From Mobula hypostoma (lineage: Eukaryota): a stretch of DNA of 64,000 bases. Every line of letters starts with the position of its first letter. The first letter of the stretch is position 1. The stretch lies in assembly GCF_963921235.1 (NCBI RefSeq), contig NC_086097.1:101558001-101622000 (forward strand). Direction: 5' to 3'. This document shows positions 35,372 to 55,200 of the stretch, in pieces. The translations under genes were made by a program, and so were the position numbers. The notes under the pieces were generated by a model. It saw nothing but the letters and a program-made list of their open reading frames with translations. It made no database searches and had not been told where the DNA came from.

Positions 35372-35510
35372 ATTTCTATTCAAAAAGTTCAAAGGAACAC
35401 CTAAACAAGCCTAGTGCATTTTGGAAACATAGAAAATAGGTGCAGGAGTAGGCCATTCGGCCCTTCGAGCCTGCACCGCCATTTATTATGATCATGGCTG
35501 ATCATCCAAC

Positions 35511-38309
35511 TCAGAACCCCGCCCCAGCCTTCCCTCCATACCCCCTGATCCCCGTAGCCACAAGGGCCATATCTAACTCCCTCTTAAATATAGCCAATGA
35601 ACTGGCCTCAACTGTTTCCTGTGGCAGAGAATTCCACAGATTCACCACTCTCTGTGTGAAGAAGTTTTTCCTAATCTTGGTCCTAAAAGGCTTCCCCTTT
35701 ATCCTCAAACTGTGACTCCTCGTTCTGGACTTCCCCAACATCGGGAACAATCTTCCTGCATCTAGCCTGTCCAATCCCTTTAGGATTTTATACGTTTCAA
35801 TCAGATCCCCCCTCAATCTTCTAAATTCCAACGAGTACAAGCCCAGTTCATCCAGTCTTTCTTCATATGAAAGTCCTGCCATCCCGGGAATCAATCTGGT
35901 GAACCTTCTTTGTACTCCCTCTATGGCAAGGATGTCTTTCCTCAGATTAGGGGACCAAAACTGCACACAATACTCCAGGTGTGGTCTCACCAAGGCCTTG
36001 TACAACTGCAGTAGTAACTCCCTGCTCCTGTACTCGAATCCTTTCGCTATAAATGCCAGCATACCATTCGCCTTTTTCACCGCCTGCTGTACCTGCATGC
36101 CCACTTTCAATGACTGGTGTATAATGACACCCAGGTCTCGTTGCACCTCCCCTTTTCCTAATCTGCCACCATTCAGATAATAATCTGTTTTCCTATTTTT
36201 GCCACCAAAGTGGATAACTTCACATTTATCCACATTAAATTGCATCTGCCATGAATTTGCCCACTCACCCAACCTATCCAAGTCACCCTGCATCTTCTTA
36301 GCATCCTCCTCACAGCTAACACTGCCACCCAGCTTCGTGTCATCCGCAAACTTGGAGATGCTGCATTTAATTCCCTCATCCAAGTCATTAATATATATTG
36401 TAAACAACTGGGGTCCCAGCACTGAGCCTTGTGGTACCCCACTAGTCACCGCCTGCCATTCTGAAAAGGTCCCGTTTATTCCCACTCTTTGCTTCCTGTC
36501 TGCTAACCAATTCTCCATCCACATCAATACCTTACCCCCAATACCGTGTGCTTTAAGTTTGCACACTAATCTCCTGTGTGGGACCTTGTCAAAAGCCTTT
36601 TGAAAATCCAAATATACCACATCCACTGGTTCTCCCCTATCCACTCTACTAGTTACATCCTCAAAAAATTCTATGAGATTCGTCAGACATGATTTTCCTT
36701 TCACAAATCCATGCTGACTTTGTCCGATGATTTCACCACTTTCCAAATGTGCTGTTATCACATCTTTGATAACTGACTCCAGCAGTTTCCCCACCACCGA
36801 TGTTAGGCTAACCGGTCTATAATTCCCCGGTTTCTCTCTCCCTCCTTTTTTAAAAAGTGGGGTTACATTAGCCACTCTCCAATCCTCAGGAACTAGTCCA
36901 GAATCTAACGAGTTTTGAAAAATGATCACTAATGCATCCACTATTTCTTGGGCTACTTCCTTAAGCACTCTAGGATGCAGACCATCTGGCCCTGGGGATT
37001 TATCTGCCTTCAATCCCTTCAATTTACCTAACACCACTTCCCTACTAACATGTATTTCGCTCAGTTCCTCCATCTCACTGGACCCTCTGTCCCCTATTAT
37101 TTCTGGAAGATTATTTATGTCCTCCTTAGTGAAGACAGAACCAAAGTAATTATTCAATTGGTCTGCCATGTCCTTGCTCCCCATAATCAATTCACCTGTT
37201 TCTGTCTGTAGGGGACCTACATTTGTCTTTACCAGTCTTTTCCTTTTTACATATCTCTTAAAGCTTTTACAGTCATTTTTTATGTTCCCTGCCAGTTTTC
37301 TCTCATAATCTTTTTTCCCCTTCCTAATTAAGCCCTTTGTCCTCCTCTGCTGAACTCTGAATTTCTCCCAGTCCTCAGGTGAGCCACTTTTTCTGGCTAA
37401 TTTGTATGCTTCTTCTTTGGAATTGATACTATCCCTAATTTCTCTTGTCAGCCACGGGTGCACTACCTTCCTTGATTTATTCTTTTGCCAAACTGGGATG
37501 AACAATTGTTGTAGTTCATCCATGCAACCTTTAAATGCTTGCCATTGCATATCCACCGTCAATCCTTTAAGTGTCATTTGCCAGTCTATCTTAGCTAATT
37601 CACGTCTCATACCTTCAAAGTTACCCCTCTTTAAGTTCAGAACCTTTGTTTCTGAATTAACTATGTCACTCTCCATCTTAATGAAGAATTCCACCATATT
37701 ATGGTCACTCTTACCCAAGGGGCCTCTCACGACAAGATTGCTAATTAACCCTTCCTCATTGCTCAAAACCCAGTCCAGAATAGCCTGCTCTCTAGTTGGT
37801 TTCTCGACATGTTGGTTCAAAAAACCATCCCGCATACATTCCAAGAAATCCTCTTCCTCAGCACCTTTACCAATTTGGTTCACCCAATCTACATGTAGAT
37901 TGAAGTCACCCATTATAACTGCTGTTCCTTTATTGCACACATTTCTAATTTCCTGTTTAATACCATCTCCGACCTCACTACTACTGTTAGGTGGCCTGTA
38001 CACAACTCCCACCAGCGTTTTCTGCCCCTTAGTGTTACGCAGCTCTACCCATATCGATTCCACATCTTCCCGGCTTATGTCCTTCCTTTCTATTGCGTTA
38101 ATCTCTTCTTTAACCAGCAACGCCACCCCACCTCCCCTTCCTTCATGTCTATCCCTCCTGAATATTGAATATCCCTGAACGTTGAGCTCCCATCCTTGGT
38201 CACCCTGGAGCCATGTCTCTGTGATCCCAACTATATCATAATCATTAATAACAATCTGCACTTTCAATTCATCCACCTTATTACGAATGCTCCTTGCATT
38301 GACACACAA
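35511..38309 (-). CDS. CR1 ORF2: APE endonuclease plus reverse transcriptase, 932 codons, no AUG start
   Basis: NARS, ITETW, GGGVA, YRPP, GDFN and SDH (EN); NYRPVSLT, DFQKAFD, GVPQGSVLGP and FADD (RT). No stops or frameshifts. Confidence 0.95.
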   Translation of the reverse strand: MCVNARSIRNKVDELKVQIVINDYDIVGITETWLQGDQGWELNVQGYSIFRRDRHEGRGGGVALLVKEEINAIERKDISREDVESIWVELRNTKGQKTLVGVVYRPPNSSSEVGDGIKQEIRNVCNKGTAVIMGDFNLHVDWVNQIGKGAEEEDFLECMRDGFLNQHVEKPTREQAILDWVLSNEEGLISNLVVRGPLGKSDHNMVEFFIKMESDIVNSETKVLNLKRGNFEGMRRELAKIDWQMTLKGLTVDMQWQAFKGCMDELQQLFIPVWQKNKSRKVVHPWLTREIRDSINSKEEAYKLARKSGSPEDWEKFRVQQRRTKGLIRKGKKDYERKLAGNIKNDCKSFKRYVKRKRLVKTNVGPLQTETGELIMGSKDMADQLNNYFGSVFTKEDINNLPEIIGDRGSSEMEELSEIHVSREVVLGKLKGLKADKSPGPDGLHPRVLKEVAQEIVDALVIIFQNSLDSGLVPEDWRVANVTPLFKKGGREKPGNYRPVSLTSVVGKLLESVIKDVITAHLESGEIIGQSQHGFVKGKSCLTNLIEFFEDVTSRVDRGEPVDVVYLDFQKAFDKVPHRRLVCKLKAHGIGGKVLMWMENWLADRKQRVGINGTFSEWQAVTSGVPQGSVLGPQLFTIYINDLDEGIKCSISKFADDTKLGGSVSCEEDAKKMQGDLDRLGEWANSWQMQFNVDKCEVIHFGGKNRKTDYYLNGGRLGKGEVQRDLGVIIHQSLKVGMQVQQAVKKANGMLAFIAKGFEYRSRELLLQLYKALVRPHLEYCVQFWSPNLRKDILAIEGVQRRFTRLIPGMAGLSYEERLDELGLYSLEFRRLRGDLIETYKILKGLDRLDAGRLFPMLGKSRTRSHSLRIKGKPFRTKIRKNFFTQRVVNLWNSLPQETVEASSLAIFKRELDMALVATGIRGYGGKAGAGF

Positions 38310-38548
38310 AGCCTTCAGGCGCTCTTTTACAACTCTCTTAGCCCTTATACAATTATGTTGAAAAGTGGCCCTTTATAATGCTTGCCCTGGATTTGTCGGC
38401 CTGCCACTTTTACTTTTCTCCTTAGTACTTTTTGCTTCTACCCTCACTTTACACCCCTCTGTCTCTCTGCACTGGTTCCCATCCCCCTGTTGTGAACTAA
38501 CCTCCTCTCGCCTAGCCTCTTTAATTTGATTCCCACCCCCCAACCATT

Positions 38549-39078
38549 CTAGTTTAAAGTCACCTCAGTAGCCCTCGCTAATCTCCCTGCCAGGATATTG
38601 GTCCCCCTAGGATTCAAGTGTAACCCGTCCTTTTTGTACAGGTCACGCCTGCGCCAAAAGAGGTCCCAATGATCCAAAAACTTGAATCCCTGCCCCCTGC
38701 TCCAATCCCTCAGCCACGCATTTATCCTCCACCTCATCGCATTCCTACTCTCGCTGTCACGTGGCACAGGCAGTAATCCCGAGATTACTACCTTTGCGGT
38801 CCTTTTTCTCAACTCCCTTCCTAGCTCCCTATATTCTCCTTTCAGGACCTCATCCCTTTTCCTACCTATGTCATTGGTACCTATATGTACCACGACCTCT
38901 GGCTCCTCACCCTCCCACTTCAGGATATCTTGGACACGATCAGAAATATCCCGGACCCTGGCACCAGGGAGGCAAACTACCATCCGGGTCTCTGGACTGC
39001 GTCCACAGAATCGCCTATCTGACCCCCTTACTATCGAGTCCCCTATCACAACTGCCCTCCTCTTCCTTGCCCTACCCT
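38549..39078 (-). CDS. CR1 ORF1 C-terminal SGNH esterase-like domain, 5'-truncated
   Basis: VIGDSIVRG, CLPGA, HIGTND and DGLHLN. Ends EVTLN-TAG. Confidence 0.9.
38552..38558 (-). promoter_or_regulatory. Candidate -1 ribosomal frameshift slippery site U_UUA_AAC
   Basis: ACT TTA AAC TAG at the ORF1 end, correctly phased; the -1 frame is the ORF2 frame. Confidence 0.5.
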
Positions 39079-40010
39079 GTGGACTGATGAAGTTAAAATA
39101 GAACTTTTTGGCCACAATGAGCAAAGGTATGTTTGGAGAAAAAAGGGTGCAGAATTTCATGAAAAGAACACCTCTCAAACTGTTAAGCAAGGGGGTGGAT
39201 CGATCATGCTTTGGGCTTGTGCCGCAGCCAGTGGCACGGGGAACATTTCACTGGTAGAGGGAAAAATGAATTCAATACAATACCAGCCAATTCTGGAAGC
39301 AAACATCACACCATCTGTAAAAAAGCTGAAGATGAAAAGAGGATGGCTTCTACAACAGGATAATGATCCTAAACACACCTCAAAATCCACAACGGACTAC
39401 CTCAAGAGACGCAAGCTGAAGGTTTTGCCATGGCCCTCACAGTCCCCCAACCTAACCATCATCGAAAATCTGTGGATAGACCTCAAAAGAGCAGTGCGTG
39501 CAAGACGGCCCAAGAATCTCACAGAACTAGAAACCTTTTGCAAATAAGAATGGGCGGAAATCCCCCAGGCAAGAATTGAAAGACTCTTAGCTGGCTACAA
39601 AAAGCGTTTACAACCTGTGATACTTGCCAAAGGGGGTGTTACTAAGTACTGACCATGCAGGGTGCCCAAACTTTTGCTTTGGGCCCTTTTCCTTTATTTT
39701 ATTTTGAAACTGTAAAAGATGGAAATAAAAAAGCAATCTTGCTTAACATATTAAAGAACTGTGTCATCTTTACGCCTTTTGGAAATCGGGTCATCTTTTA
39801 CTCGCTTAGCTATTCACGGTAACAGAAATTTTGACCAGGGGTGCCCAAACTTTTGCATGCCCCTGTACTTATTAAATTCATCTTCCATTTCTTTGTCCCC
39901 CATTACTACCTCACCAGCATCATTTTCCAGTGGTCCAATATCAACTCTCGCCTCCCTTTTACTTTTTATAACTGAAAAACTTTTTGTATCCTGCTTTATG
40001 TTATTGGCTA

Positions 40011-47689: not shown

Positions 47690-48715
47690 TTCAGGAAGGG
47701 GAAGGAGGATGGAACATGCACCAGTCCGCATTAGTGGGTCAGCAGCTTTACATTGGATTACCTGTCCGGGGCCCAGCACAGAGATGCATTCACAAGGCAG
47801 CTGCATCACAGACTCTCGATTAAAGATGTTTAGCCTATCACTGAACACTCTTAACAAACTTCTACAGCTGTTCAAAGTATCCTGACTAGTTGCATTACGG
47901 TCCTCAACAACATCTCAAATGTGCAGCAACATAAAAATCTGCAGAGAATAGAAACATAGAAACATAGAAAATAGGTGCAGGAGTAGGCCATTCGGCCCTT
48001 CGAGCCTGCACCGCCATTTATTATGATCATGGCTGATCATCCAACTCAGAACCCTGCTCTAGCCTTCCCTCCATACCCCCTGACCCCCGTAGCCACAAGG
48101 GCCATATCTAACTCCCTCTTAAATATAGCCAATGAACTGGCCTCAACTGTTTCCTGTGGCAGAGAATTCCACAGATTCACCACTCTCTGTGCGAAGAAGT
48201 TTTTCCTAATCTCAGTCCTAAAAGGCTTCCCCTCTATCCTCAAACTGTAGCCCCTCGTTCTGGACTTCCCCAACATTGGGAACAATCTTCCTGCATCTAG
48301 CCTGTCCAATCCCTTTAGGATTTTATACGTTTATAGTTGACTCCTCATCACTGGCGGTATCAACAGGAGGCTTTGCCTCAGGAAAGCAATATCTATCATC
48401 AAAGATCTCCACCATACAGGCCATGCCAGCTTCGCATAGCTACCATTAGGCAGCAGGCACATAAGCCTGAAATCCCACACCACTGGGTTCAAGAACAGCT
48501 ACTCCCCTTCAACCATCCAGTTCTAGAACCAACCTGCACAACCCCAATCACTACGTCAGGACTGTAACATTATGACCATTTTGTACTACAATGGAATTGT
48601 TCCTTGTTCCAATGGTGTAATTTACATATAATATTTTTATTTTTAATGTGCCTGTGATGCTACTGCAAGTACATTTTTCATTGCACCCGTGACAATGACA
48701 ATAAACCTGACTTGA
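47690..48715 (+). mobile_element. Rex1/Babar 3' fragment, interrupted by a young CR1
   Basis: Degenerate RT C-terminus and a caataaacctgacttga tail. Confidence 0.6.
47952..48332 (-). mobile_element. Young CR1 3' end, same subfamily as the intact copy
   Basis: Only about a dozen substitutions versus 35424-35793; TSD atag. Confidence 0.93.
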
Positions 48716-50609: not shown

Positions 50610-52290
50610 TTATTGATCTGGATAAAGGAACTGATGGCTTTATGGCCAAACTTGCAGATGACACTGAGACAAGTGAAGGGCAGATTGTGTGACAGAGTCA
50701 TGGACTCCACAGAATGGCTTGGAAAGGTTGGGAAAGTGGGAAAAGAGGTGGCAAATGGAAGGAAGTAACAGGAACTGGGGGGTTATGCACTTAAGTAGGA
50801 AAAATAAAGCAGTAGATTGTTTCTTAAATGGGAAGGGAATTCAGAAATCAGAGGTGCAAAGTGACTTGGGGTCCCTAGTCCAGGATTCCTTAAAGGTTAA
50901 CTTGCAGGTTGAGTCGGTAGTAAAGAAGGCAAACGCAATGTTAGCATTCATTTCCAGAGGACTAGAATATGCAAACAAGGATATACTGCTGAAGGATGAG
51001 TGACTGAAGAAGTGGTGCAGGGGGTAGGTTTTCAGATTTCTGGATCATTGGGATCTCTTCTGGGGAAGATAGAACCCATGCAAAAAAGGACAGTTTATAC
51101 CTGGACCCAAGGGGAACCAATATCATTGCAAGCAGGTTTGCTAGAGCTGTTGGAGAGGGCTTAAACTAATTTGGCAGAGTGATGGGAACTGAAATGATAG
51201 AGCTGAGGATGCAGCAGTTGGTATACAAGTTGATGCAGTGTGTAGTGAGACTGCAGGCAAGGACAGGCAGATAATTGACAAAATTGTAGTCAATGAAATG
51301 ACTGTAACATGGGGCAAAATCAAAAAGGATAATCATTTCTGGTTGGTTACAGGTGACGAATGGTATTCCGCAGCAGTCAGTACTGGGACCGCTTCTTTTC
51401 ACATTATGCATCAATGATTTGGATAATGGGATTGACGACTTTGTGACCAAGTTTATAGATGATACGAAGATAGGTGGAGGGGCAGATAATGTTGAGGAAG
51501 CAGGTAGTCTACAGAAGGACTTAGACAGATTAGGCGAATAGGCAAAGTGGCAAATAGAATATACCGTAGGGAAGTGTAGGAGGAATAAGGGCATAGACTA
51601 TTTTCTAAGTGGGGAGAAAATTCAAAAATAAGGTAACTTGTAGGTTGAGTTGGTGGTAAGGAAGGCAAATATAATGTTAGCATTCGTTTCAAGAGGACGA
51701 GAACATAACCAGCAAGGATGTAATGCTGAGGTTTTATAAGGCATTTGGAGTTTGAGAGCACTTTTGGGCCCCTTATCTAAGAAAAGGTGTGCTGGCATGG
51801 GAGAGGCTTTAGAGGAGGTTCATGTAAATGATTCCAAGAATGAAAGGGTTAACATGTGAGGAGCGTTTGATTGGTCTGTGCCTGTACTCATTGGAGTTTT
51901 CAAGAATGAGGGGCAATCTCATTGAAATCTATTGAACATTGAAAGGCCTAGGACAGAGTGGATGTGGAGATGATATTTCCTATAGTGAGTGAGTCTAGGA
52001 CCAGAGGGCACAGTCTCATTATAGAGTGACATCCATTTAGAACAGAGATAAAAAGGAATTTCCTTAGCCAGAACACGGTGAACGTGTGGAATTCATTGCC
52101 ATAGATGGCCGTGCAGGTCAAGTCACTGAGTATATTTATAGCAGTGGTTGTTAGGTTCTTTGTTAGTCAGTGTGTCAAAGGTTACAGGGGGAAGGCAGGA
52201 AAATGGAGCTGAAAGAGTAGTAAATCAGCCATGATGAAACAGTGGAGTAGGCTCAAGAGCTGAGTGGCCTAATTCTGCTCCATGTCATCT
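50610..52290 (+). mobile_element. CR1 fragments: RT piece 50610-50995; ORF1 end joined by deletion to RT-3'UTR 50995-52290
   Basis: FRFLDHWDLFWG; QQSVLGPLLFTLCINDLD..TKFIDDTK. Confidence 0.8.
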
Positions 52291-55200
52291 GGTCTTAGAT
52301 TCTCCCACCACAGGAAGCATCCTCTCCACATCCACTCTATCAAGACCTTTCACCAGTTGATAGATTTCAATGAGGTTACACCTCATTCTTATGAATTCTA
52401 CTGAATACAGAGCCATCAAACATTCTTCATATAACAAGCCATTCAATCTTGGAATTATTTTCGTGAACCTCCTTTGAAACCTCTCCAGTTTCAGCACATC
52501 CTTTCGAAATAAGGGACCCAAAACTGCTCAGAATACCTCAAGTACATCCTTGCTTTTATATTCTAGTCCTCTTGAAATGAATTCTAACATTGCATTTGCT
52601 TTCCTCACTACAGACTCAGTCTGCAAATTAACCTTTAGGGAATCCTGCACAAGGACTCCCAAATCCCTTTGCACCTCAGATTTTTGCATTTTCTCTCTAT
52701 TTAGAAAATAGTCAACCCTTTCATTTCTTCTACCAAAGTGCATGGCTATACAATTCCCGAAACTGTATTCCATCTACCTTTTCTTTGCCCAATCTCCTAA
52801 TTTGTGGGCACGTGGCCAAGTGGTTAAGGCGTTCGACTAGCGACCTGAAGGTTGTGAGTTCGAGCCCCAGCCAAGACAGCATGTTGTTTCCTTGAGCAAG
52901 GTACTTAATCACACAGTGCTCTGCAACGACACTGGTGCCAAGCTGTATGGGTCCTAATGCCCTTCCCTTGGACAACATTGGTGTTGTGGAGAGGGGAGAC
53001 TTGCAGCATGGCAACTGCCAGTCTTCCATACAACCTTTCCCAGGCCTGCGTCCTGGAGAGTGAAGACTTTCCAGGCGAAGATCCATGGTCTCGCAAGACT
53101 AACGGATGTCTTATTTTCTCCTAATTTAAGTCCTTTTATAGCTTCTTTCCTTCCTCAAAACTACCTGCCTCTTCGCCTATCATCTGCAAACTTTGCAACA
53201 AAGCCACAATTCCATCATCCAAGTCATTGACATATAACGTAAAAAAATTGCTCCCAACAAAGACCCCTATGGAATGCTACTAGTCATCGGCAGCCAACCA
53301 GGTAAGGGTCCCTTTAATACCACTCTTTGCCTCCTGCCAATCAGCCACTGGTTTATCCATGCTAGAACCTTTCCTGTAATATCATGGGCTCATAGCTTGT
53401 TAAGCAACCTCGTGTCACACCTTGTCAAAAGTTCTTCTGAAAATCCAAGTACACAACATCAGCCAATTCTCCTTTGTCTATCCCGTTTGTTATTTCCTCA
53501 AAGAATTCCAACAGATTTGTCAGGCAAGATTTTCCCTTGAGGAAACCATGTTGACTACAGCCTGCTTTGTCATCTGCCAAGTACCTGAGATCTCATCCTT
53601 AATAATCGACTCCAACATCTTCCCAACCATTGAGGTCAGACTAACTGGCCTGTAGTTTCCTTTCTTCTGCCTTTCCCCCTTCTAATCAATTCTGGTTCAT
53701 TTCAGAACACCCAATCCAGAATAGCTGATCCCCTAGTGGGCTCAACCATGAGCTGCTCTAAAAGGCCATTTCATAGGCATTCTAGAAATTCCCCCTCCTG
53801 GAATCCAGCACCAACCTGCTTTTCCCAATCTACCTGCATATTGAAATCCCCCATTACTATTTTAACATTGGCCTTTTGGCATGCATTTTCTATCTCCTGT
53901 TGTAATTTGTAGACCATATCCTTACTACTATTTGGGGGTCTGTATACAATTCCCAGCAGGGTCTTTTTACCCTTGCAGTTCCTTAGCTCTATCCACAATG
54001 ATCAAAACACCCTCTGACCCTATGTCACCTCTTTCTAAAGATTTGATTTCATTTTTTACCAACAGAGCAACACCACCCCCTCTGCTTTCCTGTCTGTCTC
54101 TTTGATACAACATGTATCCTTGGACATTAAGCTCCCAGCTATAATTTTCTTTCAGCCATGATTTAGTGATGCCTACAACATTACACCTGCCAATCTGTAA
54201 CTGTGCTGCAAGTTCATTTACCTTATTCCATGTACTGCACGCATTCAAATGTAACACCTTCAGTCCTGTATTCACTCTTTTCAATTTTGTCTACCTTTTA
54301 AGTTCCAACTCATCCTGTTGACTACAATTTTGCCCTTTCAACAGCATCTCCTCACCACACATTGCTCTGTTTGTAAACTAGGTACCTCACCTTCAGCACT
54401 ATTATCCGCCTTTCCTACGATATTTCTGTATTGAAATATACGCAGCCCAGGACACCAGTCACTCCATGCGCAACCTTTTGATTCCTAACTTTGAGGTCTT
54501 ACCAACATCTATCTCCACAACCTCTCCACTAATTGTTCTGGCAGTCTAGTTCCCATCCCCCTGAAACTCTCGTTTAAACCCGAGCGTGCAGCATTAACAA
54601 ACCTTCCCACTAGGATATTAGCCCCCCTCCAGTTCAGGTGCAAACCATCCCTTCTGTACAGGTCCCACCTTCCCTGGAAGAGAGCCCAATGATCCAAAAA
54701 TCTTATGCCCTCCCTCCTACACCAACTCCATTGCCACATATTAAACTGTATAATTTTCCTAGTTGCCCTCACTAACATGTGGCACCGATAGCAATCCTGA
54801 AATCACAACTCTGGAGGTCCTGCCCTTTAACTTAGAATCTAACTTCCTAAACTCACTATGCAGAACCTCATCACCTGTCCTGCCCATGTCATTGGTACCC
54901 ATGTGGAGCACAACTTCTCACTGTTCACCCTCCCACTTAATTATGCTGAGGATTTGATCCAGGATGTCCCGGATCCTGACACCCAGGAGGCAACATACCT
55001 TCTGGGAATCTCATTCTCGCCCATAGAACCTCCTCCGATCCATTTCCCTAACTAATAAATCCCTTTCACCATAGCCTGCCTCTTCTCTCCCCTACCATTC
55101 TGACTCAGTGCCAGAGAATGGACCACTGTGACTTTCCTCTGCTAGGAGAACCACCCCCTCCCAGCAAATCCAAAGTGATATACCTGTCGTTGAGGGGGAT

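Follow-up and report, generated by a model that had tools for sequence, protein, structure and literature searches.

Among the closest known counterparts of the arrangement studied here are the Dictyostelium elements TRE5-A and TRE3-A, which, like CR1, are two-ORF, APE-type non-LTR elements, and which need a -1 frameshift for ORF2 according to a figure legend in PMC5911963. Because it has been stated for these two elements, the idea of frameshifting in LINEs in general has a precedent. TRE5-A and TRE3-A differ from CR1 in being L1-clade elements of amoebae, and the passage concerned in PMC5911963 is silent on CR1 and on vertebrates. SART1 and L1 resemble CR1 in their bicistronic LINE RNA and low ORF2 output, but give a separate ORF2 protein. 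Reviews call the translation of LINE ORF2 an open question (PMC3894237, PMC3708506).

Coronaviruses (including IBV) and retroviral gag-pol use the same class of heptamer in the same phase, with a structural protein upstream and the polymerase in the -1 frame (PMC5009743). Their signals rely on a pseudoknot or hairpin 5-9 nt downstream, of which none is conserved in CR1, and CR1, unlike the hosts of these signals, is a non-LTR element without a protease. In the arterivirus nsp2 signal (PRRSV) and in cardiovirus, the stimulator lies 11-14 nt away and is linear or protein-bound (PMC5009743), which matches the constant start of the CR1 G-tract at +11. However, PRRSV uses a poly(C)-binding protein together with nsp1beta, whereas the CR1 tract is G-rich.

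CR1 is the dominant retrotransposon of most vertebrates (PMC13343379). The canonical vertebrate element has an esterase ORF1, an ORF2 with APE and RT, and a 3' hairpin with a microsatellite (PMC13343379, PMC8665684); the word frameshift does not occur in the main text of either paper, and CR1 goes unmentioned in the searched part of PMC5009743. We found no report of CR1 frameshifting in the literature searched, which includes PMC10275272, PMC11835228 and PMC4255032; the founding CR1 papers and Repbase entries lie outside this scope and may mention the ORF overlap or the slip site.

We analysed a 64,000-nucleotide stretch of the Mobula hypostoma genome (the window), in which a sequence-only reading had proposed that a -1 slip joins CR1 ORF1 to ORF2. 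The junction has a slippery heptamer in phase, a stop codon directly after it, an open -1 frame, a G-tract at a fixed distance and no conserved AUG. Our comparisons support the proposed interpretation, and we put at roughly 0.83 the probability that a programmed -1 ribosomal frameshift yields a CR1 ORF1-ORF2 fusion. The signal is real and conserved, and is very probably one for programmed -1 frameshifting; the element that carries it is very abundant in vertebrates, and its candidate stimulator is unusual.

The CR1 copy in the window

A single, 5'-truncated CR1-type LINE copy occupies the minus strand from ~39075 to 35424. It begins within ORF1, with neither a 5' UTR nor an ORF1 start, and retains the 3' part of ORF1 with its SGNH/GDSL esterase domain (38549..39075, minus strand; PF13472, E 7.6e-18). 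As the promoter and ORF1 start are missing, the copy is dead as an element. In full-length family copies ORF1 has 311 aa, with a Cys motif at the N-terminus. The nearest named homologue of ORF1 is from Mobula hypostoma (96%), and esterase ORF1 homologues occur in birds, turtles, squamates, frogs and coelacanth. ORF2 comprises 953 stop-free codons with Pfam domains Exo_endo_phos and RVT_1: on the minus strand, the APE endonuclease lies at 37641..38318 (PF03372, E 5.1e-12), the reverse transcriptase core at 36189..36842 (PF00078, E 1.2e-33) and the stop at 35513-35511. The 3' UTR (35424..35510, minus strand) is predicted to fold into a hairpin and ends in a microsatellite-type repeat, whose unit is present 1-2 times in family copies; there is no poly(A). 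All of the canonical CR1 traits named above are found here, APE and RT lying in one ORF. Chondrichthyan L2 elements have been reported to lack ORF1 (PMC13343379), which bears indirectly on the assignment to CR1 versus L2.

The best 40 of 915 candidate matches to the junction in the animal's own genome are 99-100% identical; judged by sequence, the window family (family A) is young and actively spreading. For the comparisons below, 57 family copies were retained from 60 loci after removal of two of another family and one duplicate; they are the best-scoring, and so the better-kept, copies.

The 5' end of the copy abuts a Tc1/mariner DDE_3 transposase fragment on the plus strand (39026-39547, with a terminal-repeat-like end at ~39840-39865), with no evident target-site duplication. 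This fragment itself sits inserted within an older CR1 RT fragment. Between 6779 and 62133, both strands carry additional decayed pieces of CR1 ORF2, over 30 in all, one of which (48049-48330) is 93% identical to the young family.

The end of ORF1

On the minus strand, positions 38558-38552 read TTTAAAC, and the final codons ACT TTA AAC TAG place this U_UUA_AAC heptamer (38552..38558) in X_XXY_YYZ phase directly before the UAG stop (38549..38551), just as the sequence-only reading had described. The heptamer is intact in 54 of the 57 family copies. Phased X_XXY_YYZ heptamers occur at 1 of 172 codon positions in the ORF1 part, namely the last one, and at 1 of 951 in ORF2. U_UUA_AAC and G_GGA_AAC rank among the most shift-prone heptamers on mammalian ribosomes (PMC5009743).

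Two sets of relatives were compared. Nine local lineages came from genome searches with the two older CR1 families of the window and with divergent ORF1 proteins; their modal linkers measure 125-314 nt, all 2 modulo 3 when intact. A metagenome scan, with a pattern taken from the middle of ORF1 and not using the heptamer, gave 53 loci, of which 20 reach the junction with enough flank and 29 or so end before the ORF1 stop. For most of the 20 the nearest protein is a hummingbird ORF1; distant proteins are nearest to one group and one lone locus, and a loach L2-type protein to three loci. These three L2-like esterase-ORF1 elements (L149, L165, L167) lack the heptamer and serve as a control; they have in common a short ORF1-end motif and a C-rich spacer. 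The lineage counts given here are not independent trials: the lineages share ancestry, many are represented by one decayed copy each, and the frame count is anchored on the motif.

For the heptamer count, the ORF1 stop was located by translating from the esterase D-x-x-H motif; two of 20 lineages without this anchor were left out, and both carry the heptamer. Across the remaining 18 lineages, agreement at the seven positions is 17, 18, 18, 18, 18, 18 and 18, always immediately before the stop. The last codons are xxT TTA AAC in 17 lineages and xxG in one, the lone exception being G_UUA_AAC, a site of the equine arteritis virus type (PMC5009743). The stop stands at the same place in all 18 (TAG 12, TAA 5, TGA 1). 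Third positions of the nine ORF1 codons preceding the heptamer codons agree in merely 6-12 of 18 lineages, position -10 excepted. This position (window 38561, minus strand, counted from the ORF1 stop) is a wobble G in 17 of 18 lineages and possibly belongs to the shift context. Both Leu positions of the DGLHL motif in ORF1 are encoded by several codons across the 18 lineages, and in the window ORF2 TTA accounts for 13 of 92 Leu codons and AAC for 12 of 44 Asn codons. We thus read the heptamer as conserved at the nucleotide level, in its synonymous positions, beyond conservation of the protein. Counting against the frameshift reading, 38/180 junctions in the own genome and 6/20 in the metagenomes do not have even xTTAAAC and a stop; these are decayed copies or L2-like.

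Two older CR1 families in the window carry the same site at the end of ORF1. Family B has the heptamer at 54572..54578 (minus strand), the stop after it having decayed to GAG, and a third family, C, has a decayed C_TTA_AAC followed by TAA at 51160..51169 (plus strand).

The protein ends bear the same mark. Among 187 ORF1 homologues reaching the catalytic motif, 120 end in Leu-Asn (83 of 95 closer ones and 37 of 92 from a further search), including those of sharks, rays, coelacanth, frogs, turtles, squamates and a hummingbird. In an alignment of 22 sequences with a mean identity of 35%, Leu-Asn never varies, unlike the catalytic His. As some of these endings lie 5-13 residues further from the catalytic motif, Leu-Asn follows the stop and not the fold. 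Eight of the 187, all distant and known as protein only, end in Gly-Asn, which G_GGA_AAC, the second of the highly shift-prone heptamers, would encode. A few homologues end in, or pass through, Lys-Asn or Phe-Phe, and about a third of the distant proteins have no ending of any such kind. No relatives of the distant Gly-Asn-ending proteins were found in the viral contigs or prokaryote genomes scanned, and an own-genome search with one of them returned local families only. Two CR1 ORF1 proteins (P0022, P0083) are recorded as from Pseudomonas aeruginosa and the fluke Protopolystoma xenopodis; these records are probably host contamination.

Alternatively, ORF2 might be initiated internally and independently of ORF1 (IRES-like, at a non-AUG codon or from a subgenomic transcript), with the heptamer merely encoding a Leu-Asn that is needed. 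Initiation of the IRES type has been proposed for LINE ORF2 (PMC3894237), and Leu-Asn could matter to ORF1p. However, a requirement of the protein would not hold TTA, AAC and the wobble T before them constant, and the linker lacks conserved structure and contains no stops all the way back to the heptamer. We consider internal initiation very unlikely.

The -1 frame between ORF1 and ORF2

ORF2 lies in the -1 frame relative to ORF1 on the minus strand, and a 78-codon linker without an AUG (38319..38552, minus strand) leads from the slip site to the endonuclease. If stops were as dense as in the other two frames, 78 codons would stay open with p about 0.001. As had been noted from the sequence, TAA at 38375-38373 is the only -1-frame stop between heptamer and endonuclease, and the prediction that it is a private AAA>TAA change was borne out by comparison with family copies and other contigs. 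All 29 other best-matching copies read A at 38375. In the 57 family copies, the codon (38373..38375, minus strand) is AAA in 48, AGA in one and TAA only in the window, with seven not located; contigs of other organisms carry the other base in seven of eight runs, the eighth having no coverage there.

The -1 frame is open in 44 of the 57 copies, in line with the expectation for the family, and is also open in other lineages. Eight copies carry a single stop, no two at the same codon, and five were left unscored for frame, four of them with 1-nt indels and the fifth (L019) open by a separate comparison. Within-family variation looks neutral, with no sign of selection on the linker in a test that lacks power. 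Four of the 57 copies (L043, L054, L059, L060) have in common an in-frame 27-nt linker deletion between short direct repeats. In family F (L214-L253), a frame-breaking 16-nt linker deletion is present in roughly a quarter of 34 copies. This deletion looks recurrent, as it lies between direct repeats and occurs on two backgrounds; alternatively, a defective sub-lineage may be spreading.

Between lineages, the endonuclease is in the -1 frame in all 19 lineages in which its start was found (21 examined). Over 1053 linker codons in these 19, the -1 frame holds nine stops and the other frames 74 and 102. Eight of the nine fall in single decayed copies, and the ninth, in family B, proved on re-alignment not to be a majority stop (no codon had one in more than 5 of 30 copies). 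The linkers, of 31-105 codons, span a threefold length range and cannot be aligned between lineages. Chance or functionless inheritance could be invoked, in that the lineages have common ancestry and within-family variation is neutral, but despite these unalignable linkers the reading frame, the heptamer and the spacing of the G-tract persist from rays to birds and further. The lineage comparisons largely refute such an explanation, to which we give next to no weight.

The sequence-only reading had called ORF2 AUG-less. The first in-frame ATG of the window copy is indeed late (37913-37911, at IMGDFN, 132 codons after LCVNARS and within the endonuclease), so that initiation there would remove about 130 endonuclease residues in the window family. 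The description holds for this family and four more of the 19 lineages, but not in general: 14 of 19 linkers contain an in-frame Met, anywhere from codon 2 to codon 87, and in four lineages, several of them bird-like, it is codon 2 of the -1 frame.

A Met before or at the endonuclease start in 14 of 19 lineages means that termination-reinitiation could serve those lineages and makes it the main rival. Here, as in L1 or SART1, a ribosome that had terminated at the ORF1 stop would begin again in the -1 frame, from a nearby AUG or non-AUG codon, giving a separate ORF2p, and the heptamer and G-tract would together be the reinitiation signal. The mechanism has been tested in SART1 and is favoured for L1 (PMC2881922, PMC3894237, PMC5009743); a fixed stop position and a frame open from the stop would be expected under it too, and the AUG at codon 2 in bird-like lineages suits it. 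It leaves unexplained the synonymous conservation of the X_XXY_YYZ pattern, the exclusive use of the -1 frame and the apparent replacement of the heptamer by other slippery dipeptides in distant ORF1s. Moreover, five of 19 lineages have no AUG and the rest no fixed start position, and the window family, unlike SART1 with its UAAUG stop-start, has no AUG overlapping or adjoining the ORF1 stop in the ORF2 frame. We regard reinitiation as unlikely, but in Met-bearing lineages it could be at work alongside frameshifting.

Frameshifting is favoured because it alone explains why the heptamer is conserved at synonymous positions, why only the -1 frame is used, why the linker is stop-free but otherwise free, and why five of 19 lineages, including the actively spreading window family, have no AUG. 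Under this model, most ribosomes would stop at UAG and release ORF1p. In a few per cent, the Leu- and Asn-tRNAs on UUA/AAC would shift back by one base, CUA (Leu) would be read next and translation would continue into an ORF1-linker-EN-RT fusion, of about 1,320 residues in the window family. Slippage would set a high ORF1p:ORF2p ratio, as in Gag/Gag-Pol. If so, the CR1 enzyme is made as an ORF1-ORF2 fusion, which would correct the annotation of CR1 ORF2 and the calling of 'intact' copies, provide a design rule for CR1 retrotransposition assays, and add to the cellular frameshift signals a very widespread one that is stimulated by something other than a standard structure.

ORF2 might also be translated from a spliced RNA with an acceptor at the junction, the heptamer region acting as branch point and the AG lying at +2/+3 or +10/+11. 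Of 20 lineage representatives, 12 have an AG ending at +11 and 14 have one ending at +3, and the sequence around the ORF1 stop resembles a branch-point motif. Neither AG is universal, however: that at +11 is missing in families A and D and that at +3 in TAA-ending families, the two positions, 8 nt apart, would give different frames, and the junction has no polypyrimidine tract. Among the joints listed, none has GT..AG ends on the element strand, which counts for little as the contigs of the eight runs are only guessed to be RNA. We judge splicing extremely unlikely. In two runs of one study (X1, X4), a well-covered contig skips 248 nt (38279-38528), removing the linker and the start of the endonuclease; the skip has non-splice ends and is perhaps an amplified deletion derivative.

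The G-rich tract and candidate stimulators

A conserved G-rich tract of G5-N2-G3 pattern occupies +11 to +20 after the heptamer (38532..38541, minus strand) and is a candidate linear stimulator. G is found at +11 to +15 in 18, 18, 17, 17 and 16 of 18 lineages and at +18 to +20 in 15, 15 and 13, and the run starts at +11 in all 18. In the -1 frame, the amino acid whose codon ends at +11 differs between lineages, an indication that the G-run is constrained at the RNA level. The tract had been described from the sequence as beginning 6 nt after the heptamer; in the window family it does start at +7, but between lineages it is conserved only from +11.

A G-quadruplex, as the sequence-only reading had suggested, does not hold as a general stimulator. 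A two-tier pattern is possible in seven of 19 lineages (the window family and six others) and not in 12, and the one three-tier match is a decayed copy with an expanded G-run. Quadruplex stimulators that have been tested are three-tier with 6-8 nt spacers, and fewer quartets give less shifting (PMC3919603). Nor did we find a conserved downstream hairpin: by single-sequence MFE and shuffles over 60 nt in 19 lineages, 18 had z values of -1.8 to +1.3. Strong folding downstream (z -3.3) was confined to sauropsid-like metagenome copies (L141, L143) with TGA after the heptamer.

The CR1 junction therefore has the phased heptamer, open -1 frame and synonymous conservation of a frameshift signal and, in place of a hairpin- or pseudoknot-type stimulator 5-9 nt downstream, for which single-sequence prediction of pseudoknot-free folds gave no conserved candidate, a linear G-tract at +11. 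The missing conserved structure counts against frameshifting, since a bare heptamer gives low shifting. Stimulators 11-15 nt 3' of the site form a minority class, linear or protein-associated, and in pea enation mosaic virus a stop immediately following the slip site has a stimulatory effect of its own (PMC5009743). Given frameshifting, the chances are about even that the stimulator is the linear G-tract together with the adjacent stop. The G-run at +11 to +20 might then act at the leading edge of the ribosome, helped by the stop, with a bound protein or a second RNA mediating its effect.

We considered, and rejected, a long-range interaction in which the G-tract pairs with the 3' UTR. In family A, the 3' UTR is the best partner element-wide (-20 kcal/mol, rank 1/71 and 1/68). 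The pairing is not general: in three other families, represented by six copies, it ranks 5-35, and the motif of every family finds its best partner in the pyrimidine-rich 3' end of family A. In several copies of families E and I (L199, L209-L211, L236), the G-tract has grown to runs of 10-17 G, which suggests polymerase slippage.

The window family carries a second, in-frame copy of the G-rich motif 54 nt further on (38475..38489, minus strand), and the alignment of other families starts at 38489, corresponding to their stop+8. ORF1 of the window family is 82% identical to that of family D, whereas its endonuclease is 44% identical to family D and 54-56% to families F and B. Similarity to family D at the DNA level fades near 38490, and similarity to families F, C and B begins at 38489, at their G-motif. 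The second G-motif is likely what remains of the junction in another CR1 lineage, and would mark the crossover from which this mosaic family arose. The crossover, inside the linker, added 54 nt and kept the frame; that recombination between two lineages did so counts in favour of frameshifting. In one run, a contig has the heptamer directly before the second G-motif, as the parental form would have.
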